From IMG/VR virus record IMGVR_UViG_3300031519_006853, positions 32,001-96,000 of that record: 64,000 bases of DNA; one strand, written 5' to 3'. This DNA is from a virus. The notes beneath the pieces are model-generated. The model ran no database searches. It saw only the letters and a program-made list of their open reading frames with translations, and had not been told where the DNA came from. Positions 17,172-64,000 of this stretch are shown one piece after another (the first letter of the stretch is position 1; every line of letters starts with the position of its first letter). Both the position numbers and the translations under genes were made by a program.

Positions 17172-18042
17172 AGGAGATACATTTGCAGATGTTTATGAAA
17201 AAGCATTAAGAGATACTTTAGACAATCCTGATTATACTTCTAAACCAAGAGGTATGGAAATTAAAGAAATATGCAATGCAGCCTTAGTTATAGATGATCC
17301 TTATTTTCCACTTTATGAAAATAAAAAAAGAAGTAGCCAATTTAAATATATTGCTGGTGAAACTGTATGGTATTTTACAGGAAGAAAGGATATTGATTTT
17401 ATAAGTAAGTATTCTAAATTTTGGAGTCAATTAGACAATGGTGATGGTACTGTAAACTCTGCTTATGGAAATCTTATATTTAAGGAATTACTTTCTGATG
17501 GTAGAAATCAATACCAATGGGCATTAGATTCTTTAATAGAAGATAAAGATTCAAGACAATCAATTATACACTTTAACAAACCTTCTCACCAATGGCAAGG
17601 TAATAAAGATTTTGTATGTACTCTTAATGGTGTATTTCAAATCAGAGATAACAGATTAAACTTTACTGTTGATATGAGATCCAATGATTTAATATTAGGT
17701 ACAGCAACTGATGTGGCATTCTTTTGTTTATTACAACAACAAATGTTAAAGCATTTACAATTATATTATCCTAATCTTAAAATGGGTTCGTATACTCATA
17801 TAGTTCATTCATTACATATTTATGAAAGACATTTTGAATTAGTAAAAGAAATGTTAAGCAATGAATTTACTCACATGTCATACCCACCTTTAAATAGAAA
17901 CTTAATTACAGCAAAGGGCCATCCTACTGATGAAATGAATTTATTAGAATTAGAAATTTTAGAAGAAGGTCCTGTTGCTTTATTTAAAGATCCATTATTT
18001 AAATGGTTATCTGATTATAGCTTTCAACTAACTGATATATAA
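17158..18042 (+). CDS. Thymidylate synthase homologue of dCMP hydroxymethylase type (T4 gp42-like)
   Basis: Catalytic DFVCT, MRSNDLILGTATDV (Asp at the position of ThyA Asn177) and HSLHIYERHF. Confidence 0.78.
   Translation: MRTYRGDTFADVYEKALRDTLDNPDYTSKPRGMEIKEICNAALVIDDPYFPLYENKKRSSQFKYIAGETVWYFTGRKDIDFISKYSKFWSQLDNGDGTVNSAYGNLIFKELLSDGRNQYQWALDSLIEDKDSRQSIIHFNKPSHQWQGNKDFVCTLNGVFQIRDNRLNFTVDMRSNDLILGTATDVAFFCLLQQQMLKHLQLYYPNLKMGSYTHIVHSLHIYERHFELVKEMLSNEFTHMSYPPLNRNLITAKGHPTDEMNLLELEILEEGPVALFKDPLFKWLSDYSFQLTDI
18034..18042 (+). promoter_or_regulatory. Putative late promoter (GATATATAA)
   Basis: Same motif as before the sheath gene; precedes a capsid-leader ORF embedded among replication genes. 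Confidence 0.5.
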
Positions 18043-18057
18043 TAAAATTACTTATAA

Positions 18058-19275
18058 GTGTTGAAATATCTAAAACTTTTTGAACAGTTCCTACACCTAA
18101 CAGAAAAGAAACCTGCCGGTGCTCCTGAATTCTATCACTCTGATGCACCTGATGCTGAAGGCAGATTCAAAGATCTTTCTATAAAAGATTTAGCTGCATG
18201 GTTAATTAAAACCAGAAAAAAGGATGTTAAAAAGATTAGCGGTTCTTTAACACAGCAGGTAGTTTTTAATAGAAAAAGCGATCCAAAGTATGCTGAAAAG
18301 ATGGAGAAAACCAGAAAAGAAGTATATAAACAATTAGGTAGAGAAGATTTATTAAAGGAATCGGTTAATACTGAAGGCGGTTTAGGTAAAGTTTATTTAG
18401 CATTAAGAGAAGATAGCGGACAAAGATGGTGGACTTATAAAGGTTTTGCTGGAGATAATTTCTTTACTCAGATCCATGAAAATAACATGAATGATATTGA
18501 TATTAATCCTGACTACCCAGTTTTAACATATCACTCAGATACAGTTAATAAACTAATAAAGGCTGGTAAGATTAAAAAAGAAAATGTTTATAACCACCCA
18601 GACCATATATCAAAATCTGGATCTAAAGAAGAATTCCATAAACTGGTTGGAGAAGATGAAAATATACCGAAGACAGTATATTCTAAAAATGATGCATTAG
18701 AAAAATTAGAATTTCCTATTATTGCAAAACCTGCAGAAGGTCATAGCGGTAAAGGTATTCAAATTATTAATAAACCAGATTTAATGGAAGATGTAGATGA
18801 AAAGATCTTTGATACATTTTCAGAATATATTGATAAAGAAGAAGAACATAGATTTATAAACTTTAAAGGTAAGCCTATCTTTTGGATGGAAAGAACTCCA
18901 TTAAATGAAAAAGCTAAAACTGGTAAAGGTAGTGCTAAAAGTGAAATGGAATTTGGTTATGCAAAAAGGAGCTTAAGTGATTTACCTGAAGATTATAGAA
19001 AAGTCTTAGAAAGATTCTGTAAGATCTATGAAGATTTACCTTATATGTGTTTTGATGTAATGAAAGGTAAAAATGGAAAAGTATATATTATTGAATCAAA
19101 TGCACAACCTGGAGTACCTTTTGATTCAACTGTTGAGGCTTATAAACATATCTATGAAGATTTTTATAAGAAACCTCTTGATAAAGAAAGTTTAACTAAA
19201 CTAAATGAATACGCAAAAACTATGATTGAAAAGACCCTCAAAAAAGATGGTGGTAAAAGATTTTCAATTAAATAG
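18058..19275 (+). CDS. Putative head-packaged protein: capsid-targeting leader, small module and RimK-like ATP-grasp domain
   Basis: GTG/TTG start, KYLKLFEQFLHLTE leader, LLKESVNTE linker, then IPKTVY, FPIIAKPAEGHSGKGI, FDVMKG and IIESNAQPG ATP-grasp motifs. Confidence 0.75.
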   Translation: MLKYLKLFEQFLHLTEKKPAGAPEFYHSDAPDAEGRFKDLSIKDLAAWLIKTRKKDVKKISGSLTQQVVFNRKSDPKYAEKMEKTRKEVYKQLGREDLLKESVNTEGGLGKVYLALREDSGQRWWTYKGFAGDNFFTQIHENNMNDIDINPDYPVLTYHSDTVNKLIKAGKIKKENVYNHPDHISKSGSKEEFHKLVGEDENIPKTVYSKNDALEKLEFPIIAKPAEGHSGKGIQIINKPDLMEDVDEKIFDTFSEYIDKEEEHRFINFKGKPIFWMERTPLNEKAKTGKGSAKSEMEFGYAKRSLSDLPEDYRKVLERFCKIYEDLPYMCFDVMKGKNGKVYIIESNAQPGVPFDSTVEAYKHIYEDFYKKPLDKESLTKLNEYAKTMIEKTLKKDGGKRFSIK

Positions 19276-19295
19276 TAAAAAAGTTACTAAAAACT

Positions 19296-19326
19296 TTTCA
19301 GTTCCCAACAAATTTGTTTATATTTA
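19296..19326 (+). promoter_or_regulatory. Putative early promoter (TTTCAG-N17-TATATTTA)
   Basis: Exact bipartite match; drives the phosphoesterase-like/sigma operon. Confidence 0.62.
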
Positions 19327-19365
19327 TACTGTATTATATGAAACAATACACTGTAAAACAATTAT

Positions 19366-19893
19366 ATGAATAAAAAAATACCTAAAGACTTTTATATTAC
19401 TTCTGATACCTGGTTCGGTAGACCACAGATTCTTCAGATTGCCAACAGACCGTTTAATACTGTAGAAGAAATGAATACAGCATTAATCAAAAATTGGAAT
19501 AAGAAGATTAAAAAATCTGATGTAGTATTTCATTTAGGAAATTTTGCATGGGATCCAACAACTGCTCGTAAAGTACTCAAAAAATTAAATGGAAAAATAT
19601 TCTTTTTAAAAGGTAGTTCTGATAAAGCATTGGAAGAAGTTATACATGAATTTCCTAAGGCTGAATTTCTAAAGGAATCAATTATGGATTTAATTGATTT
19701 TGATACTGTGATTTGCCATTACCCATTATCGGTTTGGAACGGTAAAGATTCAGGAACAATTCATATGCATGGTCATACAGTATTTTCACATAAGACTAAC
19801 CTAACAATTGAAAACAGATTTAATGTCTGTTCTGATTTTTGGGAATTCTCACCTATTAATTACCTAACCTTAAAAGATTTCATAAATGGCTAA
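19366..19893 (+). CDS. Calcineurin-like metallophosphoesterase homologue with degenerate metal ligands
   Basis: Fold motifs are present but altered: SDTWFG (DxH), HLGNF (GD), KGSSD (GNHD), HGHTV (GHxH). Confidence 0.75.
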   Translation: MNKKIPKDFYITSDTWFGRPQILQIANRPFNTVEEMNTALIKNWNKKIKKSDVVFHLGNFAWDPTTARKVLKKLNGKIFFLKGSSDKALEEVIHEFPKAEFLKESIMDLIDFDTVICHYPLSVWNGKDSGTIHMHGHTVFSHKTNLTIENRFNVCSDFWEFSPINYLTLKDFING

Positions 19894-20524
19894 AAGAACA
19901 AAGAAAACCTATAAAGAACTTGCAATAGAATTTAAAAAGACAAGAAAAGAAAGCGTGTATAATGAACTATATGCCAAGATGAGACCAGGGTTATGGTCAT
20001 ATACAAATAATATTGTAAAAGATCCTCATGTAGCTGATGATATTGTATCAACAACTTTAACAACAGTGTATTTAAAAATTGATCAATACAATGAAGATTA
20101 TCAAATTACAACATGGGCATATCGTATTGCTTATAATGAATGCATCGGCTGGATAAGATATAGAAATAGAAAGGTAAGTATGAATGCATTTACTGACAAA
20201 GGAATCGATCCTCCAACATTTATGCTACCTCATATTGACACTGATAATTCAATGCCACCAACAGAAGCAGATTACTGGGAAGCTGAGCATCTCTTAACTG
20301 AAAAGGTAAGATTAACTACCGAAGCAATTAAAGCTTTGCCTCCAATGTATAAGAGATTTATGGAAGAAAGGTTCTTAAATAAAAAATCTTATAATGATAT
20401 TTTAGATATCATGTCCGACTGTGAAAAAGGCATAAATTTACAAACTGTGAAAAACCGCATATTCCGTGGAAGGAAAATAGTCAGAAAACAACTAGAAAGT
20501 ATGAAAGTCTTCTCCGAGGCATAA
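19886..20524 (+). CDS. RNA polymerase ECF-type sigma-70 factor
   Basis: Region 2: LY...LWSY...IVKDPHVADDIVSTT...VY.KIDQY...TTWAYRIAYNECI. Region 4: AIKALPPMYK...SYNDI......QTVKNRIFRGRK. Confidence 0.88.
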   Translation: MAKRTKKTYKELAIEFKKTRKESVYNELYAKMRPGLWSYTNNIVKDPHVADDIVSTTLTTVYLKIDQYNEDYQITTWAYRIAYNECIGWIRYRNRKVSMNAFTDKGIDPPTFMLPHIDTDNSMPPTEADYWEAEHLLTEKVRLTTEAIKALPPMYKRFMEERFLNKKSYNDILDIMSDCEKGINLQTVKNRIFRGRKIVRKQLESMKVFSEA

Positions 20525-22554: not shown

Positions 22555-22851
22555 ATGTTTATAAGAAATTATAGAGATTTTCTTTTAGAAGTAAGGGATC
22601 AAAAACATGAGCCAGCCGGGGAAAAGGTTGAAAAGGATCATAAAGATGGTAAACATAGCGGAGTAGACTCAAAACTAGAAAAAGAAATAGAAGATGAATT
22701 GGAAGCCAATGCCGAAGATTGCCCAAGGTGCGGAGAGCATATCGAGTCTTGTGAATGTGCCGAGAAGGACCCATGGTCAACTCAAGTTTATCACAGAGCT
22801 CCAAAAGGAAAAGAATTTAAAGCAAAACCAAAACAACAATTTAAAAAATAA
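22555..22851 (+). CDS. Small capsid-leader-bearing protein with Cys cluster
   Basis: MFIRNYRDFLLE leader; CPRCGEHIESCEC. Confidence 0.62.
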   Translation: MFIRNYRDFLLEVRDQKHEPAGEKVEKDHKDGKHSGVDSKLEKEIEDELEANAEDCPRCGEHIESCECAEKDPWSTQVYHRAPKGKEFKAKPKQQFKK

Positions 22852-22855
22852 AATA

Positions 22856-23143
22856 ATGAACAAATTTAACAAATTTTTTGCAGAACATGGAATTAAAATA
22901 ATTATAGTTATAATGGTATTAACTTATTTTAAATCATGTAGCATTGATTCTGAAGTAGAAAGAATTAAAAAAGAACAAAGAATTTTAACTACAGAGATTG
23001 ATACTTTATCATCTCAGATAGTTAATCAAGAGGAAATGATATATCTTATCGAAACGGTTCCTGCTTGGAAAACTCTAAGAATTGAAGAAATTTCTGATAA
23101 AGAAAGAATCTCTATCAATGCATTAGAAGAAAAAGATAACTAA
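22856..23143 (+). CDS. Membrane-anchored coiled-coil protein (spanin-like?)
   Basis: N-terminal TM ending FKSC, then a coiled coil. Start moved to ATG 22856. Confidence 0.5.
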   Translation: MNKFNKFFAEHGIKIIIVIMVLTYFKSCSIDSEVERIKKEQRILTTEIDTLSSQIVNQEEMIYLIETVPAWKTLRIEEISDKERISINALEEKDN

Positions 23144-39959: not shown

Positions 39960-40647
39960 AATGGATAGAAACAATAAAGAGTCATACGATAATCAAATCG
40001 ATGCTTCTGTGGGTTCTAAAGAAGAACAACAACAATTAAAGGATGAATTATATACTCCTAAGGGAAATACTCATATAAAACCTGATCCTCGAAAGATGAG
40101 TGAAATTATTACTGATAAGAAAGCTGCATTAAAACTTAATGAAGATTTACTTAGAAATCTTCAGAAAAATGAGTATGATATTCCAATGGCAAAAGCTAAG
40201 CTTTATAAGCAACTTATGAAGTTTTTAGAAAAAGATGCTGAATGGGGTCATACTACTGCGACAGGTTTAGTAATGTTATATTCTAATCTTAAAGAAAATT
40301 CTAAAGCAGTTCAGTCTAAAGACTGGGACGGTATTGTTAAATTAAGAGGTACAAGTATTACTATCCTATGGACAATGGTAACATCAATGAAAGGTAAAGG
40401 ATTCTTTGAAGCTAGAAATTTTATTGAGTTAATGGCTGAATTTGGACAAGATCTTTCTACTGTAGTTCAAAAGGTTCATCAAGATAACCAAGCACTTAGA
40501 GATAATCACGTAAAGTTATCAGAATTAGATAAAGAAGTTAATCATCCTGATGTTATTCTTGATGTATCAATTGATGAATATAATAAAGCTGAAGATGAAC
40601 TTAATCAATTAATGGATGAAGTTGATCCAGTAGTAGAAACAGTTTAA
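39943..40647 (+). CDS. Hypothetical helical protein
   Basis: Long clean ORF in the operon. Confidence 0.7.
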   Translation: MAKTIKMDRNNKESYDNQIDASVGSKEEQQQLKDELYTPKGNTHIKPDPRKMSEIITDKKAALKLNEDLLRNLQKNEYDIPMAKAKLYKQLMKFLEKDAEWGHTTATGLVMLYSNLKENSKAVQSKDWDGIVKLRGTSITILWTMVTSMKGKGFFEARNFIELMAEFGQDLSTVVQKVHQDNQALRDNHVKLSELDKEVNHPDVILDVSIDEYNKAEDELNQLMDEVDPVVETV

Positions 40648-40648
40648 T

Positions 40649-40897
40649 ATGGGATTCCACAGAAGACATATAGATAATGATCAAGTTATCAGATTTTATA
40701 ATGACGGTGGAGTAGAAAGAATAAGAAGTTGGTATACACGAGGAGTGGATGCTTTAATTACAGAAACCGGCCTGGCATCACAGGTCGGTTCTATTCTTTC
40801 AGATGATGAATGGAGACAAATAGGAACTGTTCGCCAAGATGAAGAAATCATCAAAATAATTCAACAACATTTAGGAGTAGAAGACATTAAAAAATAA
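40649..40897 (+). CDS. Hypothetical protein
   Basis: MGFHRRHI start; clean ORF. Confidence 0.6.
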   Translation: MGFHRRHIDNDQVIRFYNDGGVERIRSWYTRGVDALITETGLASQVGSILSDDEWRQIGTVRQDEEIIKIIQQHLGVEDIKK

Positions 40898-40910
40898 CTC
40901 CATCCTTGTT

Positions 40911-40920
40911 GAATAAATAA
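40911..40920 (+). promoter_or_regulatory. Putative late promoter (GAATAAATAA)
   Basis: Identical to the motif at 59142; precedes the capsid-leader cluster. Confidence 0.5.
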
Positions 40921-40939
40921 AGAAAACAAACTGTTTAAC

Positions 40940-41998
40940 ATGGAACATATTAAAGACTACAAATTATTTAAAGAGTCTCTAAATACCGAAGTACTCAATG
41001 AGGCTTTTAGTTCAGGTATCTTAAGAGATTTATCTAGCCAAAGTAGAGGCAAATGGGGTGGCAACTTAGCCAAAGACATGCAAAAATATGCAAGTCTTGC
41101 TCTAGACAAAATTTCGGATTCGGATTTTACTACAACTTCACCAGAAGCTTATTGGAAAGGTGGCGATGCAAAGAACCCTAACAAAATAGGATTCTTTGTT
41201 GATGATGATCCAGGATTTATTAAATGGGCAAAGGCAAACAAAAAATACTTACCAGGAGATTTAACATTAGGTAACATTTCAAAATATGGAATAGTATTAT
41301 CTGTTGTAAGAGGTGGTGCTGGGATGTGGCATGGATTTGCTACTGATAGAGGTGGTTCTTATAGTAGACATAGAAAAGGTACTGAAGAAAGATATGGACT
41401 TCTTGCAAAAGAATATGATACTAACGGAGTTTACAGAGGCTATGAAGGCAAAAATGTTGTTGCTAAAGTAACAAGGAAAAATCTTATTGATATTGCAACT
41501 CGTGTTTATGTATTAGACTTAGATAGTTTAAGAGATAAGTATGATGTAAGCGGTTTAACTAGTGATCGTGCCAATGCTAAATCAGGTGCAACTGCGTTAA
41601 AGGATGCTAAAACTATTAAAAAAGAAAATCAAGCAAGGTATGATGCTATCTTAACCGATAGAGCTGCAATGACTGATGTTGATAAATCAGTTAAAGATTC
41701 TATTGAATTATTAAATCAACATATATCCGATGCATTAAAAGATGGTACTATGGATAAATTTGGAAACCTTACTATTGGTGAAGATCCAAGAGGAAGAAGT
41801 ATTAAGATAACTGATGGCGCTAATTACATTAAAAATCTTTTAGATGATTACCAAAGATATAAGGATTATGAAAGACAAGATAAAGAAGCAAAAGCTGATG
41901 GTAGAGAAGATAACTGGCATGCAAGAGAAATAAAGAATTATGCTAAAAGAATTCAAGATAGAGCTAGAGCAGTAAAGGCTAAAAATTATGCTTGGTAA
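40940..41998 (+). CDS. Putative internal head protein with capsid-targeting leader
   Basis: MEHIKDYKLFKESLNTEVLNE|A leader. Confidence 0.68.
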   Translation: MEHIKDYKLFKESLNTEVLNEAFSSGILRDLSSQSRGKWGGNLAKDMQKYASLALDKISDSDFTTTSPEAYWKGGDAKNPNKIGFFVDDDPGFIKWAKANKKYLPGDLTLGNISKYGIVLSVVRGGAGMWHGFATDRGGSYSRHRKGTEERYGLLAKEYDTNGVYRGYEGKNVVAKVTRKNLIDIATRVYVLDLDSLRDKYDVSGLTSDRANAKSGATALKDAKTIKKENQARYDAILTDRAAMTDVDKSVKDSIELLNQHISDALKDGTMDKFGNLTIGEDPRGRSIKITDGANYIKNLLDDYQRYKDYERQDKEAKADGREDNWHAREIKNYAKRIQDRARAVKAKNYAW

Positions 41999-42000
41999 TT

Positions 42001-43803
42001 ATGAAACATATAAAAGAATATTTATCATTTAGAGACTCTTTAAATGAAGGACCAGGAAAGGGTTACTATATTGAAGTAGCTGTCCGAGATGCTAGAAAGG
42101 CTTTAGCAATTTTAGATGACATGTATCGTAAGAAGTTTGATATTAATGGAAGTAATGTTTATTACTTTAAGGATGAAGACATGGCATATGATGCTAAGAT
42201 GGATTTAGCAGCCAGAGATATAGAAATTGTTGATACTAATATTGAAGAATCATTAGATGAAAAGGCAGGTCCATGCTGGGATGGTTATAAAATAGGATCT
42301 CCTAAAACAAAGATATCTTCTCAAAGTGGTAAAAGAGTTAATAATTGTGTTCCTATAGATGAAGAAGTTAATGAAAAATTAGCTCGAGGATTAAAACCCT
42401 TATTGAAATTAGGTTCAACTATTACTAAGAAGACTGGTGAAGATGCATTACTAGATTTATCTGATAAGTTTGATAGTATAGATGATGAATATGCTGGAAC
42501 TATAGCAAGCCATTTAGATATGGCTATTGAATTAATGCAAGATGGTTATTCAGGAGATGCTACTAAAAAATTAAAGCAATTTAATAAAGCATGTAAAGAT
42601 GTTCTTAGTGGAAAGGAAGTTGGTTCAGCTTTTGAAAACGTTAATGAAGCAACATATAACTCAAAGAATCATATAGGAGATACTTCTGATGGGCAAGGTT
42701 CTAATGCTGAGATTTATAAAAAAGGAAAAGGATATTATGTAGTTGTTAGTGGAGAAGTTGATTATGATTTTACTGCAAAAAATGACAAAGAGTTATTACA
42801 AAAGTTAAAAGATAATGAATTTGATTCTACTGATATATTAGAAGTTAATGAAGGCAACTTTGATGATATTTTAGATTTAGTTAAATCTTTACATTTTGAA
42901 ATAGATCCTAAGGTTGCTAAGGAAAAGAAAATTGAACTTGGTAAAAGACAAGGCGAATATTCATTAAGAAAACAAATTGAAGGTGGAGAATATTCATTAA
43001 GAAGATTTAGAAAGGAAATTAAATACGACAAAACTGGTAAAGATCTTGGTATATTTAGACCTGGTAGTTATATGGCTGCTACTTCTACAGCAGGAGACGG
43101 TCCACATAGGAAGGCCGTTGCAAAGATTAAATGGAATCAAAAGAAATATGACCAATGGTTAGAAGATGTTGCATCAAATGATGGTTGGAAGAATGCTTTC
43201 GATATGGCACAAAATGCTAAACAAGAACCAGGGTTAATTTCTTGGGTTAAGAAAACGTTTAGAGTTCCTGATCCAATGCAAAGAATACAGTGGGATATTG
43301 AATCATTTGCAGAATCAGTTGATGAATCTGCAATGTCTGAACTTGATATATTAGCAAAGGAGGCAAAAGACTTTAAGGCATTTACAAAAGAAGTATTTAA
43401 AGAATTTAAAAATTTACCAAAAAAGGCAGATACTTTAAAATGGTTAGAAGAATTATATAACGATGCAATAAATGAAGCAGAAAAAGCTGAAGGTGATCGT
43501 AGTAAATTATCAGCTGACATTGAAAAAGCATTAAAGGATAAGGCTACCGAGAGTGGCGTACCTATTGGATTATTAAGATTAGTAATGAGAAGAGGTTTGG
43601 ATGCTTGGAACAGTAGTCATCGTGCAGGTGTACCACAAGTAGCTTGGGGTTATGCTCGTGTAAATGCATTCTTAGAAAAAGGTAAAGGAACTTGGGGTAA
43701 GGCTGATGCTGATATTGCAAAAGAAGTTAGAGATGAAGGCAAGGCTGGTAAACTACCAATTAAAAATCCTTCTGAATTTACCAAAAAAGAAAGAGAAGCA
43801 TAA
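42001..43803 (+). CDS. Putative internal head polyprotein (about 7 modules)
   Basis: Start moved to ATG 42001 (MKHIKEYLSFRDSLNE). Linkers ESLDE, EEVNE, ENVNE, EVNE, ESVDE, AINE. Modules include GPCWDGY...NCVP and ALKDKATESG...GL.AW...HR.G..Q..WGYARVNAF (DUF5824-like). Confidence 0.72.
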   Translation: MKHIKEYLSFRDSLNEGPGKGYYIEVAVRDARKALAILDDMYRKKFDINGSNVYYFKDEDMAYDAKMDLAARDIEIVDTNIEESLDEKAGPCWDGYKIGSPKTKISSQSGKRVNNCVPIDEEVNEKLARGLKPLLKLGSTITKKTGEDALLDLSDKFDSIDDEYAGTIASHLDMAIELMQDGYSGDATKKLKQFNKACKDVLSGKEVGSAFENVNEATYNSKNHIGDTSDGQGSNAEIYKKGKGYYVVVSGEVDYDFTAKNDKELLQKLKDNEFDSTDILEVNEGNFDDILDLVKSLHFEIDPKVAKEKKIELGKRQGEYSLRKQIEGGEYSLRRFRKEIKYDKTGKDLGIFRPGSYMAATSTAGDGPHRKAVAKIKWNQKKYDQWLEDVASNDGWKNAFDMAQNAKQEPGLISWVKKTFRVPDPMQRIQWDIESFAESVDESAMSELDILAKEAKDFKAFTKEVFKEFKNLPKKADTLKWLEELYNDAINEAEKAEGDRSKLSADIEKALKDKATESGVPIGLLRLVMRRGLDAWNSSHRAGVPQVAWGYARVNAFLEKGKGTWGKADADIAKEVRDEGKAGKLPIKNPSEFTKKEREA

Positions 43804-44348
43804 TGAAATTTATAAAAGGCTTTACTGATTTTAAAAATGTATCTGAAGAACTTAAATATCATGTAGATAATGGTATAGGTTTAGATGATAGTGTTTTTCG
43901 TTTAGGATCTGATGCTCATAGTAAATTATTTGAAGAAGCTAAACAATATTGGGATAAAGGAAATCTAGTATTAAAAGGTAAAAGCGGATTTATGGCTAAG
44001 AACCTTGATGTAGGTAAAGAAGCTATTTATAAAGATCGTAAATCAGGCAGAACTAAAAAAGTTAAACTTGATTCACCAGAAAGAGGCGGCAATAGAAAAT
44101 TTATTGTTTATCGTGATGGCGGAAGAACTGATAAAGAAACAGGAAAGATTGTTGCAAAGAAGATTGAATGGGGAGATCCTAACTTATCTGTAAAGAATGA
44201 TGATCCTGGTGCAGCTGCTAGTTTTTGGGCAAGACATCAATGTGATCAAAAGAAAAAGATGGATCCAAATAAAGCAGGCTTTTGGGCATGCTATGGACCA
44301 AGTCTATTTGGAAAGCAATTAGGATTAAAGAGTACTAATCCTTGGTAA
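43803..44348 (+). CDS. Putative internal head protein (DUF6321-like C-terminal domain)
   Basis: MKFIKGFTDFKNVSEE leader; KIEWGDPNL...DDP....SFWARHQC...KAGFWAC. Confidence 0.65.
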   Translation: MKFIKGFTDFKNVSEELKYHVDNGIGLDDSVFRLGSDAHSKLFEEAKQYWDKGNLVLKGKSGFMAKNLDVGKEAIYKDRKSGRTKKVKLDSPERGGNRKFIVYRDGGRTDKETGKIVAKKIEWGDPNLSVKNDDPGAAASFWARHQCDQKKKMDPNKAGFWACYGPSLFGKQLGLKSTNPW

Positions 44349-44350
44349 GT

Positions 44351-44359
44351 AATATATAA
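44351..44359 (+). promoter_or_regulatory. Putative late promoter (AATATATAA)
   Basis: Recurring motif. Confidence 0.48.
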
Positions 44360-44375
44360 AAAAATAATATACACA

Positions 44376-45470
44376 ATGAAACATTTACAAAGAATAGATG
44401 AAGCTGTTGGTACAATCTTAGAAAGAAGAGCTTCGGCCGAATCTTTACTTAAAGGTGTAGCTAAAGGCGATTCAACTGAAGTAGAGGGAATTAAAATGTC
44501 TAAAGATATGGCTGATGCTTATTTAGACTGGTTAAGGTTATCAACTTATGGTAAGAAATTTGGAGCATTACCATTTTATAAATTATTTTCAGCTTCGTTT
44601 AATTGGGGTATAGAAAGATATATTGGTAAAGATTTAAAAGCTGAACTTAAAGAACTTAAAGCCAAGGCTAAATCAATGAAAGAGGCTAACGAGATTAATG
44701 AAAAAACTTCTTTAGGAAAACTTTCAAAGTTAATAGATAAAGCAGTAAAGAAAGCTGATGTTCCATTAAGCTATGCTAGAGAATATATTAGTTCTTTAGA
44801 AGATATGGCAAAAAGAAATTCTAAAAAGTTCTTTAAAGATTATAATAATTTTAGTGAAGATGATTTTATCGAGGATGTTGAATATAACATGGCTAATGAA
44901 AATAAAGTAAATGAAGCTAAAGATTTTGAACCTCATATGATGTATGATCCTGAAACTGGTGATGAATATGAAGCTGAAAAACCAGAAGATCATGAGAGAA
45001 TGGCTAAACTAGGTTATGTTCATGAAAAACCAGAAAGCGTTGATGAGGCTAGGTTTGTAAAAGATTTTAACACGCGTGTTTTGGATGCAAAAACAAAAGA
45101 GGAAGTTTTAAAACTTTATCCAAATGCAGAATTCTTTATTGGTAAATCAGACCACTTCTTTGGAGAATTAGATGCTAACTTATTCTTTAAAGCATATTAT
45201 ACAAAAGGGCAAAAAGAATTTAGAATAAAATCAGTTTATTCTGAGAAAAATAAAAACTATGTTCATTTATTTAATGAATCATTAAATGAAGCCGCTCCTC
45301 GAATAAAAACGAGTAAAGAAGAAGCAAGCTTATTAGATTTAAGAGATCAAGTTAGATATGCACAAAAGGGTGGATCTGCTAGCAGATATGCAAAAGACTT
45401 TGAAAAAGCAAAGAAAAAGGCTTTAAGTGCATTAGGAGATATGATAACATATATAAAAATAGGAGTATAA
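44376..45470 (+). CDS. Putative internal head polyprotein (about 5 modules)
   Basis: MKHLQRIDE leader; linkers EINE, KVNE, ESVDE, ESLNE; module DFEPHMMYDPETG...HERMAKLGYVHE. Confidence 0.7.
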   Translation: MKHLQRIDEAVGTILERRASAESLLKGVAKGDSTEVEGIKMSKDMADAYLDWLRLSTYGKKFGALPFYKLFSASFNWGIERYIGKDLKAELKELKAKAKSMKEANEINEKTSLGKLSKLIDKAVKKADVPLSYAREYISSLEDMAKRNSKKFFKDYNNFSEDDFIEDVEYNMANENKVNEAKDFEPHMMYDPETGDEYEAEKPEDHERMAKLGYVHEKPESVDEARFVKDFNTRVLDAKTKEEVLKLYPNAEFFIGKSDHFFGELDANLFFKAYYTKGQKEFRIKSVYSEKNKNYVHLFNESLNEAAPRIKTSKEEASLLDLRDQVRYAQKGGSASRYAKDFEKAKKKALSALGDMITYIKIGV

Positions 45471-45475
45471 TAATT

Positions 45476-46051
45476 ATGAAAAACTTTAGAACATACGGAG
45501 AATTTATTACCGAAGCTTATTCTGATGAAGATAGAAAGGCAATGGCAGAAAAAGGATTTGCCTTATCTGATGGGAGTTTTCCTATCGCTAATTTAGAAGA
45601 TCTTAAGAATGCAATCCAAGCTTACGGTAGAGCAAAGGATCAAGCAAAGGCTGCTAAGTTTATTGTAAAGAGAGCAAAAGCATTAGGTGCTGAAGATCTT
45701 GTTCCTGATACAGATGATTTTCAAAAGTCATTAGATGAAGTTGCTGTTGGGTCTGCTATACATGATGTATCTACTGAGCTTCCTGCTAAAACTATTGCAT
45801 TTCCTGTAGAGGATGATGAAGAAGCAAACGGATCTATTACTGAAGGAACTGATATTGGTTCATGGAATCAAGGCGGACTTAAAGGAAAGGAAAATGTTTT
45901 AATAACTACCTTTGTTGGTCCTAAAGATGTTGAAGATTTTGGCCTAGGTAGAAAATGCATGCAAATAAATGTAGGAATGAAATATGTTTCATTAAATCCT
46001 GCTGATATTGTAGAGTTAAAAGATATTCTTAAATCTTATAAAGTAAAGTAA
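45476..46051 (+). CDS. Putative internal head protein (2-3 modules)
   Basis: MKNFRTYGEFITE|A is the closest match to T4 MKTYQEFIAE. Module DG.FPIAN.EDLKNAIQAYGRA; linkers SLDE and SITE. Confidence 0.75.
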   Translation: MKNFRTYGEFITEAYSDEDRKAMAEKGFALSDGSFPIANLEDLKNAIQAYGRAKDQAKAAKFIVKRAKALGAEDLVPDTDDFQKSLDEVAVGSAIHDVSTELPAKTIAFPVEDDEEANGSITEGTDIGSWNQGGLKGKENVLITTFVGPKDVEDFGLGRKCMQINVGMKYVSLNPADIVELKDILKSYKVK

Positions 46052-46389
46052 TGGGTTGCGGTTGTAATAACTGTAAGTGTGGCAAAGAAGCCAACGATGA
46101 ACTCATAGAACAAATAGAAGATCAAACTAAACCTTTTATTCAAGAAGAGTATTCTATAAATACTGTACTTAGGCATTTTGATCCATCTGCCCCTAATCAT
46201 TTATATAAATGGCATGCCGATGATGAAGATCGTTGGATTGAGTCTTTAAATGAAAACGATTGGAAATTTCAATTTGATGACGAATTACCTCAGTCATTAG
46301 AACCAATGAAGATTATACAAATACCTAAAGGCGTTATACATCGCCTAATTAAAGGTACTTCTAAATTAAGTATTTCTATTAAGTCTTAG
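46051..46389 (+). CDS. Cupin-like protein with Cys-rich N-terminus
   Basis: MGCGCNNCKCG; KWHAD.EDR...WKFQFDDELP...IPKGVIHRLIKG. Confidence 0.65.
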   Translation: MGCGCNNCKCGKEANDELIEQIEDQTKPFIQEEYSINTVLRHFDPSAPNHLYKWHADDEDRWIESLNENDWKFQFDDELPQSLEPMKIIQIPKGVIHRLIKGTSKLSISIKS

Positions 46390-46391
46390 CT

Positions 46392-46418
46392 TAAACCAAT
46401 TTTTATTTCGCAGTATAA
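46392..46418 (+). promoter_or_regulatory. Putative middle promoter (TAAAC-N15-AGTATAA)
   Basis: Recurring motif, in tandem with an early promoter upstream of clpC. Confidence 0.45.
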
Positions 46419-46439
46419 TTAATATACATTAACAACCAC

Positions 46440-46470
46440 TTTCAGAAAGTAATGTTTTTTGTTATATTTA
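46440..46470 (+). promoter_or_regulatory. Putative early promoter (TTTCAG-N17-TATATTTA)
   Basis: Exact bipartite match. Confidence 0.62.
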
Positions 46471-46489
46471 AATTATACTAAATAAAATT

Positions 46490-48514
46490 ATGGGAGAAAT
46501 TTATCCAGAGGAAGAACAACAAGAAAAGAAGCCGAGGTTTAAAAAGCAGACATTAGTGTTAGATACTTATGGTACTAATCTAAGCAAGTCAGCTATAGAA
46601 GGTAAATTAGATCCAGTCATTGGACGAACCGATGAAATACTTAGAGTTATACAAATTCTAGGAAGGCGTAGAAAAAACAATCCAGTTTTGGTTGGTGAAC
46701 CAGGTGTAGGTAAAACTGCAATCGTAGAAGGTTTAGCATTAAAAATGGTAGAAGGAAATGTTCCTGTATCACTACAAGGCAAAATCATTTATACTTTAGA
46801 ATTATCAACAATCGTTGCAGGTACAAAATACCGTGGCCAGTTTGAGGAACGGATGAAAAGTATTGTTGATGAATTAATTCTTAATCCACATATCATTGTT
46901 TTTATTGATGAATTACATACTCTCGTTGGAGCCGGTGGTTCTACAGGATCATTGGATGCATCAAATATTATTAAGCCAGCTTTAGCAAGAGGGGAAATTA
47001 GATGTATAGGTGCAACTACTTTTGATGAATTTAGAGAAAACATTGAAGATGATGGCGCATTAGATAGAAGATTCCAAAAGGTTGTAGTAAATCCTCCAAC
47101 ATTAGAAGAAACAATTGAAATACTTTCAATGATTAGGCATAAGTATGAAGAACACCATAGTGTATCATATTCAGATGAAGTTATTAATTTAATTGTTAAG
47201 CTTGCTGATCGTTATATTATGGATAGGTTCTTTCCTGATAAAGCAGTAGATATATTAGATGAGGTAGGATCTTATAAGCATTTAATTAACATGAAAATTC
47301 CACAAGGGATAAAATCATTAGAAGAAAAATTAGTTCAAAAGGAAAATGCTAAAAGAAAGGCAGTGTCTCGCCAACTTTATGAAGTAGCTGCAAAGGAAAG
47401 AGATGCATGTTTAACCCTTAAAGAAAGAATTAAGCATGATCTTGCTGAATGGAAAGAACAAATGGCAGTTAATCAATTAGAAATAACTGAAGATGATGTA
47501 TTAAAGGTTGTATCTAAATCAACAGGTGTACCGATAGAAAAAATATCTGATAAAGAAAACAAAAATTTATTAGGTCTTAATAAACATCTATCATCTAGAG
47601 TTATAGGACAAGAAGAAGCTGTTAATAAAATAGCAGTAACTGTTCAAAGAAACCGAGTAGGTATTAGAAAAAGAAACCGAACAATGGGTAACTTTATTTT
47701 CTTAGGTCCTACTGGTGTTGGTAAAACTCAATTAGCAAAAGAATTAACAGAATATCTTTTTAATAGTGAAGATTCATTAATTAGAGTTGATATGTCTGAA
47801 TACATGGAACCGCATTCTATTTCTAAATTAATTGGAGCACCTCCTGGTTATGTAGGTTTTGAAGGTGGTGGTTTTTTAACAGAGCAGGTAAAGAGAAAAC
47901 CACATTCAGTTATATTATTTGACGAGATAGAAAAAGCTCATCCAGAGGTCTTTAATGTACTTCTACAAATGTTAGATGATGGGCAGTTAACTGATTCTTT
48001 AGGCAGGACTGTTGATTTTAGAAATTGTTTAGTAATTCTTACATCAAATACAGGATCTAGAAAATTACAAGACTTTGGCCAAGGGATAGGATTTGAAAGT
48101 TCTTCTAAGATGGTTAATCAAGTTGAAGAAGAAAAAACTATTTTAAGAAAGGCTCTTAAAAACAAATTCTCACCAGAATTTTTAAATAGAATTGATGAGG
48201 TTGTAGTATTTAATAGATTAACGGAAGATAATGTAATGGATATTTTAACTAAAGAATGTAAAGAACTTGCATTAAACTTAGAAGAAGTAGGAAATTATAT
48301 TTTTAAAATATCTAAAGGCGCTAAAACAATAATACTTAATCAAGGATATGATCCTAAGTATGGAGCAAGACCTTTACGTAGAACCGTTGAAAGATTAATT
48401 GAAAATAAGATATCTGAATTTATTCTTAAAGGAGATTTAAAAGAAGGTGGTACGATTAATGTTAAAAGTACAAAAGGCGAATTAATAATTGATATAACAA
48501 ACATAAAAGAATAA
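46490..48514 (+). CDS. clpC: ClpC-type AAA+ ATPase lacking the N-terminal Clp-repeat domain
   Basis: [24 protein letters not shown]-like [25 protein letters not shown], ClpP-docking GIGF and GARPLRR. Confidence 0.9.
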
Positions 48515-49182
48515 TGAATTACGGAAAAGAATTTCAGAAGTATGCAATGAGTGATCATAATGTTAGCTCATCTAAGTTAAATTATTATGAGAAGCAAATT
48601 GAATCATCAATGACTCCTTATATTTTAGAGGAGAGAGAATTAAGAGCAACACAAATGGATATCTTTTCAAGGTTAATGATGGATAGATTACTTTGGGTTG
48701 CTGGGCCAGTTAATGATGGTATGTCAACAGTTGTTCAGGCTCAACTAATGTTCCTAGATAGTGTAGAGAAAAAAGATATCACAATGCATATTGATTCTCC
48801 AGGAGGTTCTGTTAAATCAGGACTCTCTATGGTAGATGTTATGGATTATATTAAATCAGATATAAGAACAGTCAATACAGGCATGGCTGCATCTATGGGA
48901 TCAGTTTTACTAGGTGCAGGAACACGGGGTAAAAGAAGTTCACTAAAACATTCAACAACAATGTTACATCAATCATCAGGAGGGTTTAGTGGAAATATAC
49001 AAGATGCTGAAATTGATATGAAAGAATGGAAAAAGATTAATAATACTCTTTTTAAATTACTCGGATCATATTGTGGTAAAAAACCAGAAAAAGTAGCAAA
49101 GGATGCAACTAGAGATTTTTGGTTAAATGCTGAGGAGGCTGTAAAGTACGGAATTATTGATGAGATAATAGGAGTTAAATAA
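48514..49182 (+). CDS. clpP: ATP-dependent Clp protease proteolytic subunit
   Basis: MDIFSRLMMDR, IDSPGGSV, GMAASMG (Ser), MLHQ (His) and TRD (Asp). Confidence 0.96.
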   Translation: MNYGKEFQKYAMSDHNVSSSKLNYYEKQIESSMTPYILEERELRATQMDIFSRLMMDRLLWVAGPVNDGMSTVVQAQLMFLDSVEKKDITMHIDSPGGSVKSGLSMVDVMDYIKSDIRTVNTGMAASMGSVLLGAGTRGKRSSLKHSTTMLHQSSGGFSGNIQDAEIDMKEWKKINNTLFKLLGSYCGKKPEKVAKDATRDFWLNAEEAVKYGIIDEIIGVK

Positions 49183-63078: not shown

Positions 63079-63831
63079 ATGAAACATATTAAAACATTTG
63101 ATTCTATTAATGAAGCTAAAAGAGCTGGTCTTTCTAAAGAAGAAACTCTAAAAGTGGCACAGAAATTTGCAAAAGCTTTATCAAAAGTAGATGGTGTAAA
63201 GGTTACAGTTAGTAAAGGTCATGAAGAAGATTCATTTGATTTAGATTATGATGGTGAAGAATACGATGGTGGTTCATATAATATTAATGATGATGGTTCA
63301 GTAGTTAATATGGCAGTTAGACATCCTAAAACAAAAGTATCACCAACTTATGGTAACATTGATGATGATGTTGCTACAATTATAAAGACTATTAAGAAGT
63401 TACCTAAGATGTTAGGTGAAGGTACTGTTATTGATTTAAGATTAGTTAATGAAAATGTTAATGATGAAATTGAAATGGCATTAACTAACTGGTTAAATAC
63501 TTTAGCTGATGGCGATCCTGTTAAAGTTACAGATCTTTATTTAGACAACGGTGTTTTACTAGGAACAGTTGCTGAAGATATTAAACAAGGACATACTGAA
63601 ATATTATCTTATTTTGAAATGTTCGTAACTAAAAATCCTATAGGAAGTGTAGATACTTTTATTTTACAAAACTTTGGTGATGTATGTATCTCTGATGGTA
63701 CTTATACATTTGAATTAGATGGAGAAGATGGCCAAAGAACTTCTGTAGCTGCAAGATACACGTATGTTTGGAAAAAAGAAAATGATAAGTGGATGATCGC
63801 AACTCACCATTCATCTGTTAATCCTAAATAA
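63079..63831 (+). CDS. Capsid-leader protein with C-terminal SnoaL/COG4875 (iota carbonic anhydrase-like) domain
   Basis: MKHIKTFDSINE|A; LVNENVNDE linker; W.N.L..GDP.KV..LY...GVL.GT...YF..F...G.YTF...ARYTYV.......W.I..HHSS.NP. Confidence 0.75.
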   Translation: MKHIKTFDSINEAKRAGLSKEETLKVAQKFAKALSKVDGVKVTVSKGHEEDSFDLDYDGEEYDGGSYNINDDGSVVNMAVRHPKTKVSPTYGNIDDDVATIIKTIKKLPKMLGEGTVIDLRLVNENVNDEIEMALTNWLNTLADGDPVKVTDLYLDNGVLLGTVAEDIKQGHTEILSYFEMFVTKNPIGSVDTFILQNFGDVCISDGTYTFELDGEDGQRTSVAARYTYVWKKENDKWMIATHHSSVNPK

Positions 63832-63832
63832 T

Positions 63833-64000
63833 ATGAAATACATTAAACCACTTAACGAAGGAAGACCTATGTTCCAAGATACTCCTAATGAGTTAGCTTA
63901 TTTAGATTTTAAAAAATGGGCATATAAGAACAGAGGCAAAATCAAAAAAGAACTTACTGGTATTACAGACGGTACTAAACTATTCATTGCCTTAAGACAG
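63833..64000 (+). CDS. Capsid-leader-bearing protein, 3'-truncated by window edge
   Basis: Read by hand: MKYIKPLNE|GRPMFQDTPNELAYLDFKKW... open to the window end. Confidence 0.65.
   Translation, partial: MKYIKPLNEGRPMFQDTPNELAYLDFKKWAYKNRGKIKKELTGITDGTKLFIALRQ

Follow-up and report, generated by a model that had tools for sequence, protein, structure and literature searches.

A shared T4-like N-terminal tag on unrelated proteins of a phage genome suggests an exchangeable, protease-trimmed head cargo

The DNA studied here, referred to as the window, is a stretch of 64,000 nucleotides (nt) corresponding to bases 32001-96000 of a 181,663-bp linear IMG/VR record (IMGVR_UViG_3300031519_006853; CheckV completeness 65%), with a G+C content of approximately 30% and nearly all genes carried on the + strand. 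It contains 11 open reading frames (ORFs) whose products share a short N-terminal leader, hereafter the tag, resembling the peptides that target the internal proteins (IPs) of coliphage T4 to the prohead; five of them are arranged consecutively and are termed ORF1 to ORF5 (Table 1). A first-pass annotation of the window had pointed out these 11 ORFs, amounting to about 10 kb, and had interpreted them as a head-cargo system. All of them are open + strand frames displaying the quoted N-termini, and together they sum to approximately 10.1 kb. Two of the start codons were revised: ORF2 starts at the ATG at 42001 instead of the TTG at 41992, and the ATP-grasp enzyme probably starts at the TTG at 18061, which gives the N-terminus M-K-Y-L-K-L-F, instead of the GTG at 18058.

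Table 1. Tagged ORFs and promoter-like box in the window (window coordinates; aa, amino acids; leader ends are predicted)
Feature	Coordinates	Strand	Description
Tagged ATP-grasp enzyme, 404 aa	18061..19275	+	Leader of ~15 residues ending L-T-E before K-K-P; Pfam ATPgrasp_YheCD, 2.7e-07
Tagged ORF, 98 aa	22555..22851	+	12-residue leader ending L-L-E; ATATATAA box 23 nt upstream (22532)
ORF1, 352 aa	40940..41998	+	21-residue leader ending L-N-E, then conserved domain of ~330 aa
ORF2, putative polyprotein, 600 aa	42001..43803	+	16-residue leader, about seven modules split by [LIV]-[ND]-E, DUF5824 last
ORF3, 181 aa	43803..44348	+	Conserved core protein starting M-K-F-[IV]-K-x-F; candidate cut site V-S-E
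Late-promoter-like box ATATATAA	44352..44359	+	Others at 18035, 22532 and 45449
ORF4, putative polyprotein, 364 aa	44376..45470	+	9-residue leader ending I-D-E, then five modules; ATATATAA box 24 nt upstream
ORF5, 191 aa	45476..46051	+	13-residue leader ending I-T-E; ATATATAA box 27 nt upstream
Tagged protein, 300 aa	60487..61389	+	Five internal [LIV]-[ND]-E sites
Tagged protein, 561 aa	61389..63074	+	Earliest possible cut L-F-E, residue 8; five internal sites
Tagged protein, 250 aa	63079..63831	+	12-residue leader ending I-N-E, N-terminal module, V-N-E at 125, NTF2/SnoaL-like domain
Tagged ORF crossing the window end	63833..64000	+	108 aa in the full record; 9-residue leader ending L-N-E

Across the whole record the family has about double the number of members seen in the window, with 21 leader-bearing ORFs (allowing for alternative starts and one-residue shifts) that encode 5831 residues and occupy 9.6% of the DNA. 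These ORFs open with M-K-x-[ILFV]-K-x-[FYL], and the first [LIV]-x-Glu is located at residue 8-21 in all 21 leaders. A strict version of the pattern, ^M[KE]x[ILFVY][KRHQNP]x[FYLI], matched 16 of the 213 ORF N-termini across the 181.7-kb record, while 4.0 ± 1.8 matches (maximum 12 in 2000 shuffles) were expected when each N-terminal column was shuffled among the proteins. The same pattern followed an internal Met at 2 of 1066 positions, a frequency that would predict about 0.9 N-terminal matches. Among the 16 strict matches, position 4 was always I, L, F or V and position 7 always F, Y, L or I, with Lys at position 5 in 11 of them. When 1037 distinct ORFs from 85 other marine viral loci were analyzed, the pattern was present at 7% of the N-termini versus 0.5% after internal Met. 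As for the sequences behind the tag, no tagged protein matched any other ORF of the record by BLASTP at E < 1e-3, and therefore the earlier description of the downstream domains as unrelated holds.

The T4 genome (NC_000866) provides the reference for this N-terminal arrangement: ipII and ipIII both start with MKTYQEFIAE followed by Ala, in agreement with the leader given in the first-pass annotation, and gp24, gp22, gp67, Alt and gp21 carry similar short propeptides. Applied to 81 T4 ORFs, the strict pattern retrieved ipII, ipIII and vs.6, and the tag at record position 177704 is identical to the T4 tag at five of ten residues. In vs.6, the N-terminus that fits the pattern has an I-L-E site at residue 8. 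The T4 propeptides are 10-20 residues long, and in the IPIII tag residues 4 and 7 are involved in targeting, whereas residues 8 and 10 direct processing (PMC9026906, PMC5694885). All T4 internal head proteins enter the core via such a tag (PMC9026906, PMC5694885, PMC3012670), and it has been suggested that the tag enables T4-like phages to load varied proteins (PMC9026906).

Three T4-type head genes are located in the record just upstream of the window, encoding the portal (Pfam Portal_T4, 4e-73), a protease-scaffold protein and the major capsid protein (Gp23-type, 8e-31). The first ~170 residues of the 573-aa protease-scaffold protein correspond to a gp21-type prohead serine protease (Pfam Peptidase_S77, 3.2e-14; MEROPS S77), which shares 32% of its residues with T4 gp21 (E 9e-13), the His- and Ser-containing motifs being aligned. 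In this gene (record positions 18182-19903), the protease domain (18182-18700) is followed by a repeat-rich coiled coil of ~400 residues, a putative scaffold, with an 11-residue-type repeat (Y-[ST]-E-Y-[IL]-[AG]-E). A fusion of identical type is found in Tenacibaculum phage PTm1, where the homologue is annotated as 'prohead core scaffolding protein and protease'. Judged by the capsid protein, the closest entries in the phage collection are an uncultured 462-kb phage (51% identity), the Lak megaphages, and the Tenacibaculum phages PTm1, PTm5 and pT24; therefore, the genome is that of a distant T4-like jumbo phage, whose host is probably a marine member of the Bacteroidota.

The motif that closes the tags is also present in the proteins on which such a protease would be expected to act. 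I-N-E and L-N-E are found in the capsid protein, at residues 9 and 46 respectively, and seven [LIV]-[ND]-E sites are distributed in the protease-scaffold protein; thus, the tags end in the motif of the phage's own expected protease substrates. In PTm1, the capsid protein displays I-N-E sites at the place matching L-N-E 46, and the scaffold is full of [LIV]-N-E. Within the record, the density of [LIV]-[ND]-Glu is 8.0 per 1000 residues for the tagged proteins versus 2.6 for the others, and the enrichment is retained after removal of the first 25 residues (6.3 versus 2.8).

Comparison with relatives revealed that the tag is kept while the sequences behind it are exchanged. The interval between ORF1 and ORF3 is hypervariable among close relatives, with the tag on every ORF: in five close contigs it is occupied by a 600-aa product (in the present record), by pairs of 287 and 267 or 274 and 267 aa, or by a single product of 554 or 500 aa, their sequences being different. 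Homologues of ORF4 range from 342 to 613 aa with a constant first module, and ORF5 may be absent, free-standing, or fused in frame, leader included, behind the ORF4 homologue (two relatives). The second module of ORF2 lies directly behind a leader in one relative and the third module does so in two others, with matching junctions, and homologous modules in other phage proteins begin exactly past [LIV]-x-Glu. The same was observed for the DUF5824 module (match in ORF2, 6.9e-09), which is preceded within ten residues by [LIVFA]-x-E in 27 of 31 distinct contexts (background 0.17), and occurs either as a stand-alone ORF of 75-127 aa right behind a leader or as the final module of proteins of at least 400 aa. 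Since the points at which modules are joined, separated or fused coincide exactly with [LIV]-x-Glu, several tagged proteins, such as ORF2 and ORF4 with eight and five [LIV][ND]E sites, respectively, would constitute polyproteins of small modules.

The conservation of individual leaders was also analyzed. Glu21, the predicted cut site of ORF1, is invariant in its 82 homologues, and in two distant homologues further modules are inserted behind the leader, ahead of the conserved domain; the gene contexts of distant homologues were taken from IMG/VR loci. In the AlphaFold model of ORF1 (pLDDT, the predicted local distance difference test score, 68 overall), residues 1-19 score below 40, and hence the model shows a disordered leader, in keeping with a propeptide. 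The leader of the ATP-grasp enzyme varies in length and sequence among 120 homologues (>90% identical) and always ends in [LI]-x-E before K-K-P, a pattern typical of a removable targeting peptide. Regarding cultured phages, tag-like N-termini were found in the Prochlorococcus cyanophage P-TIM68 (on a cytidyltransferase) and in Pelagibacter phage HTVC008M (gp139 and gp126), one of them on a nucleotidyltransferase, and Methylophilales phage Melnitz also has a tag of this kind.

Two small modules of these proteins recur in other phage proteins. Residues ~181-224 of ORF4 (window 44916-45047) form a module of ~40 residues starting with H-M-M-Y-D-P, which had no Pfam match. At 55-85% identity it is present in at least 185 IMG/VR loci, where it is embedded in a variety of large proteins that are not related to each other; three tandem copies are sometimes seen, and protease-type sites usually flank it. 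An S77 protease is encoded by three of four large contigs that share modules with the tagged proteins. In ORF2, residues 88-125 (window 42262-42375) constitute a small two-cysteine module (P-C-W ... N-C-V-P) that is found again in several marine phage proteins with no relation to one another, immediately upstream of DUF5824 or of other modules.

The tagged genes also share an upstream element. There are 38 copies of the box ATATATAA on the + strand, compared with 8 on the - strand; it is mostly placed 17-41 nt ahead of a start codon, and precedes the genes for the portal, protease-scaffold, sheath, tube and tail fibre, as well as the baseplate operon; by analogy with TATAAATA of T4, we infer that it is a late promoter. 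It is found within 50 nt upstream of 9 of the 21 tagged genes, that of the ATP-grasp enzyme among them (23 nt), versus 18 of the 193 others (odds ratio 7.3, Fisher p = 2e-4), and most of the remaining tagged genes are placed directly downstream, in tight, often overlapping operons. A scan for sigma-70 promoters and terminators revealed no excess.

Searches for the identity of the cargo yielded few matches. The recognisable cargo domains in the window are only three: the ATP-grasp fold, the NTF2/SnoaL-like domain of the protein at 63079 (Pfam CaMKII_AD, 3.5e-17, residues 130-249), and DUF5824. No match for ORF1, ORF3, ORF4 or ORF5 was obtained in Pfam, PHROGs or NCBIfam, in which ORF2 retrieved DUF5824 only, and a protein atlas returned DUF5824 again and nothing more. 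None of the internal-protein families of Pfam, PHROGs or NCBIfam was detected among the nine window proteins tested; judging from their sequences, the tagged proteins do not appear to be homologues of the T4 IPs, though they are alike in layout. A profile search with ORF1 against PDB sequences returned nothing, and the AlphaFold models of ORF1 and ORF3 had no Foldseek match in PDB at E <= 0.001. A wide VIA structure search with ORF3 gave a best Z of 4.8 to small winged-helix/RRE-like domains (residues 1-60), which is below the stated noise level and was not used. At the DNA level, the search of positions 40000-47000 against 50,697 phage records matched the Clp ATPase gene only.

Taken together, these results suggest, with a probability of roughly 0.7, that the tagged proteins are head-cargo proteins of a T4-like phage, which would be loaded into the head and trimmed by its protease. 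The T4-like tag is shared by at least 21 unrelated proteins, so the phage probably ships a large, exchangeable cargo with its DNA. In the proposed mechanism, the amphipathic N-terminal peptide (M-K-x-hydrophobic-K-x-aromatic) would dock the newly made protein on the scaffolding core during prohead assembly, and the scaffold-fused gp21-type serine protease would then remove the tag by cutting after Glu in [LIV]-x-Glu. In the longer proteins, cutting at this motif may also separate the small modules of a chain from one another. The released proteins and peptides would stay in the DNA-filled head, and would most likely exit together with the DNA at infection; they may then act as anti-defence or host-takeover effectors, as the first-pass annotation had proposed.

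Several observations weigh against this interpretation. The cultured phage PTm1 carries the protease-scaffold fusion without the tag family (strict pattern in 0 of 54 ORFs), which shows that members of the clade can do without the tag. Three tagged ORFs offer only an early L-F-E among the first 26 residues scanned, and some [LIV][ND]E sites fall within the ATP-grasp fold, where they are probably left uncut. Furthermore, M-K starts and Lys-richness are ordinary in AT-rich genomes, and shuffled columns still yield four matches. An effector role, in turn, is not backed by any cargo function recognised. The head-cargo proposal of the first-pass annotation agrees with the leader anatomy, the gp21-type protease, the shared cut motif and upstream box, and the retention of the tag over swapped cargo. 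ORF3 (397 homologues) fits it less well: its first seven residues are near-invariant in 120 homologues, but the candidate site V-S-E is often V-S-P, and in its AlphaFold model (pLDDT 73) the N-terminus is structured and part of the fold. ORF3 may therefore represent an exception that is loaded uncut, or its resemblance to the leaders may be partly structural.

Other explanations for the shared N-terminus were considered. The tagged proteins could be loaded into the head and act there, as core, inner-body or DNA-condensing components, instead of being delivered to the host, an alternative that we regard as unlikely but the most serious of those examined. It would agree with the conservation of ORF1 and ORF3, which are core genes and not fast-evolving, with the permanence of small core-derived peptides in the T4 head, and with the tagged 356-aa protein encoded right after the capsid gene, which is Lys/Ala/Glu-rich (pI, the isoelectric point, 9.5) and may be a bulk internal protein analogous to T4 IPIII. 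The mature tagged products are a mixture in this respect, approximately half being basic, in line with this alternative, and eight acidic, which argues against it; moreover, the presence of enzymes (ATP-grasp, and nucleotidyltransferases in relatives) and the hypervariable, swapped cargo fit delivered effectors better.

A second group of alternatives denies the tag any role in head loading. It might be recognised by another enzyme, either as a degradation or unfolding signal for a Clp-type ATPase/ClpP or as the substrate of a modifying enzyme such as those of ribosomally synthesized and post-translationally modified peptides (RiPPs). The proximity of the genes gives this possibility some appeal, given that a Clp ATPase and a ClpP are encoded directly downstream of the five ORFs, an order kept in relatives. 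It is nevertheless improbable: T4 and P-TIM68 carry such tags without an adjoining Clp gene in the stretches read, tagged genes are found at many places in the record and not only adjacent to clp, and the end motif of the tag recurs in the capsid protein and scaffold. In addition, no radical-SAM gene is present in the record, an argument against a tag of the RiPP type. Finally, the leader could be functionless, resulting from N-terminal composition or translation-start bias in an AT-rich genome plus a chance Glu. M-K starts and AAA codons are indeed common, and account for the approximately four matches obtained with shuffled columns, but not for the 16 observed (4.0 ± 1.8 expected). Highly expressed structural genes lack the pattern, the hydrophobic positions 4 and 7 are encoded by different codons, homologues retain the tag although the length of the tag changes, and the same motif marks module junctions. 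Because of these statistics and the behavior of the tag in homologues, a composition artefact is strongly disfavored, being the least credible of the explanations considered.

The principle of the proposed head-cargo system is already known from T4, whose three internal proteins, together with Alt, are the classic examples of proteins injected with the phage DNA, one of them defeating a host restriction enzyme. The tagged proteins resemble T4 IPI, IPII, IPIII and Alt in the short propeptide with key positions 4 and 7, the [LI]-x-Glu end and the unrelated mature parts, and the two phages are also alike in the gp21-type protease, the cut motif shared by capsid protein and scaffold, and the variation of cargo loci between relatives. 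In contrast, T4 has about four tagged proteins and the present record at least 21, many of which are long putative polyproteins with internal junction sites, enzyme folds and modules common to marine phages. Additionally, Asn, Asp or Thr usually occupies P2 here, protease and scaffold form a single fused protein, and the tagged proteins have no sequence similarity to the T4 IPs. The ejection and inner-body proteins of the giant phages phiKZ and SPN3US, whose propeptides are presumed to direct them to the prohead (PMC5694885), offer another parallel, as many head-internal proteins are each cut several times after Glu in a short motif; nonetheless, most of these propeptides exceed 100 residues, there is no common short N-terminal tag, and their protease belongs to the S80 family in a separate phage lineage. 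Among other capsid-like systems that receive protein cargo are the encapsulins.

In these HK97-fold compartments, a short portable peptide also sends unrelated enzymes into a capsid-like shell, although this peptide is usually C-terminal, binds the shell itself and remains uncleaved, with no transfer of the cargo into another cell. Our literature searches turned up no account of a tag family expanded to this size, of protease-jointed cargo polyproteins or of shared marine modules, and no virion proteome of a tagged relative.

A broader and more tentative proposal, to which we give somewhat less than even odds, is that marine T4-like phages possess a plug-in cargo system based on a single tag, in which strings of modules are swapped, fused and split at protease joints, so that dozens of proteins and peptides of ~40-70 residues, including the H-M-M-Y-D-P and DUF5824 modules, would be released as a shared injectable effector repertoire. 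If abundant ocean phages did load twenty or more proteins by this route, among them enzymes and multi-module chains that can be cleaved, the first minutes of marine infections would involve a delivered proteome far richer than genome annotation suggests, virion cargo could be predicted in metagenomes by searching for the tag, and for hundreds of 'hypothetical' marine phage genes one could test where and when their products act. Tools for packaging proteins into T4 could likewise draw on the variety of working tags and junctions that occurs in nature.

Additional observations concern the genes neighboring the tagged ORFs. The 98-aa ORF at 22555 had been masked by a longer overlapping frame, the longest-ORF call at 22694-23143, with which it shares 157 nt; the true start of the overlapping gene is likely the ATG just past 22851, and its product is probably a membrane protein. 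The Clp genes occupy window positions 46490-49182, and encode an ATPase with two AAA domains (674 aa; AAA_2, ClpB_D2-small) and a ClpP of 222 aa (2.7e-58). A 112-aa ORF (window 46051-46389) separates the Clp ATPase gene from the five tagged ORFs and has a Cys-rich opening (C-G-C-x-x-C-K-C), whose position is conserved in all close relatives.

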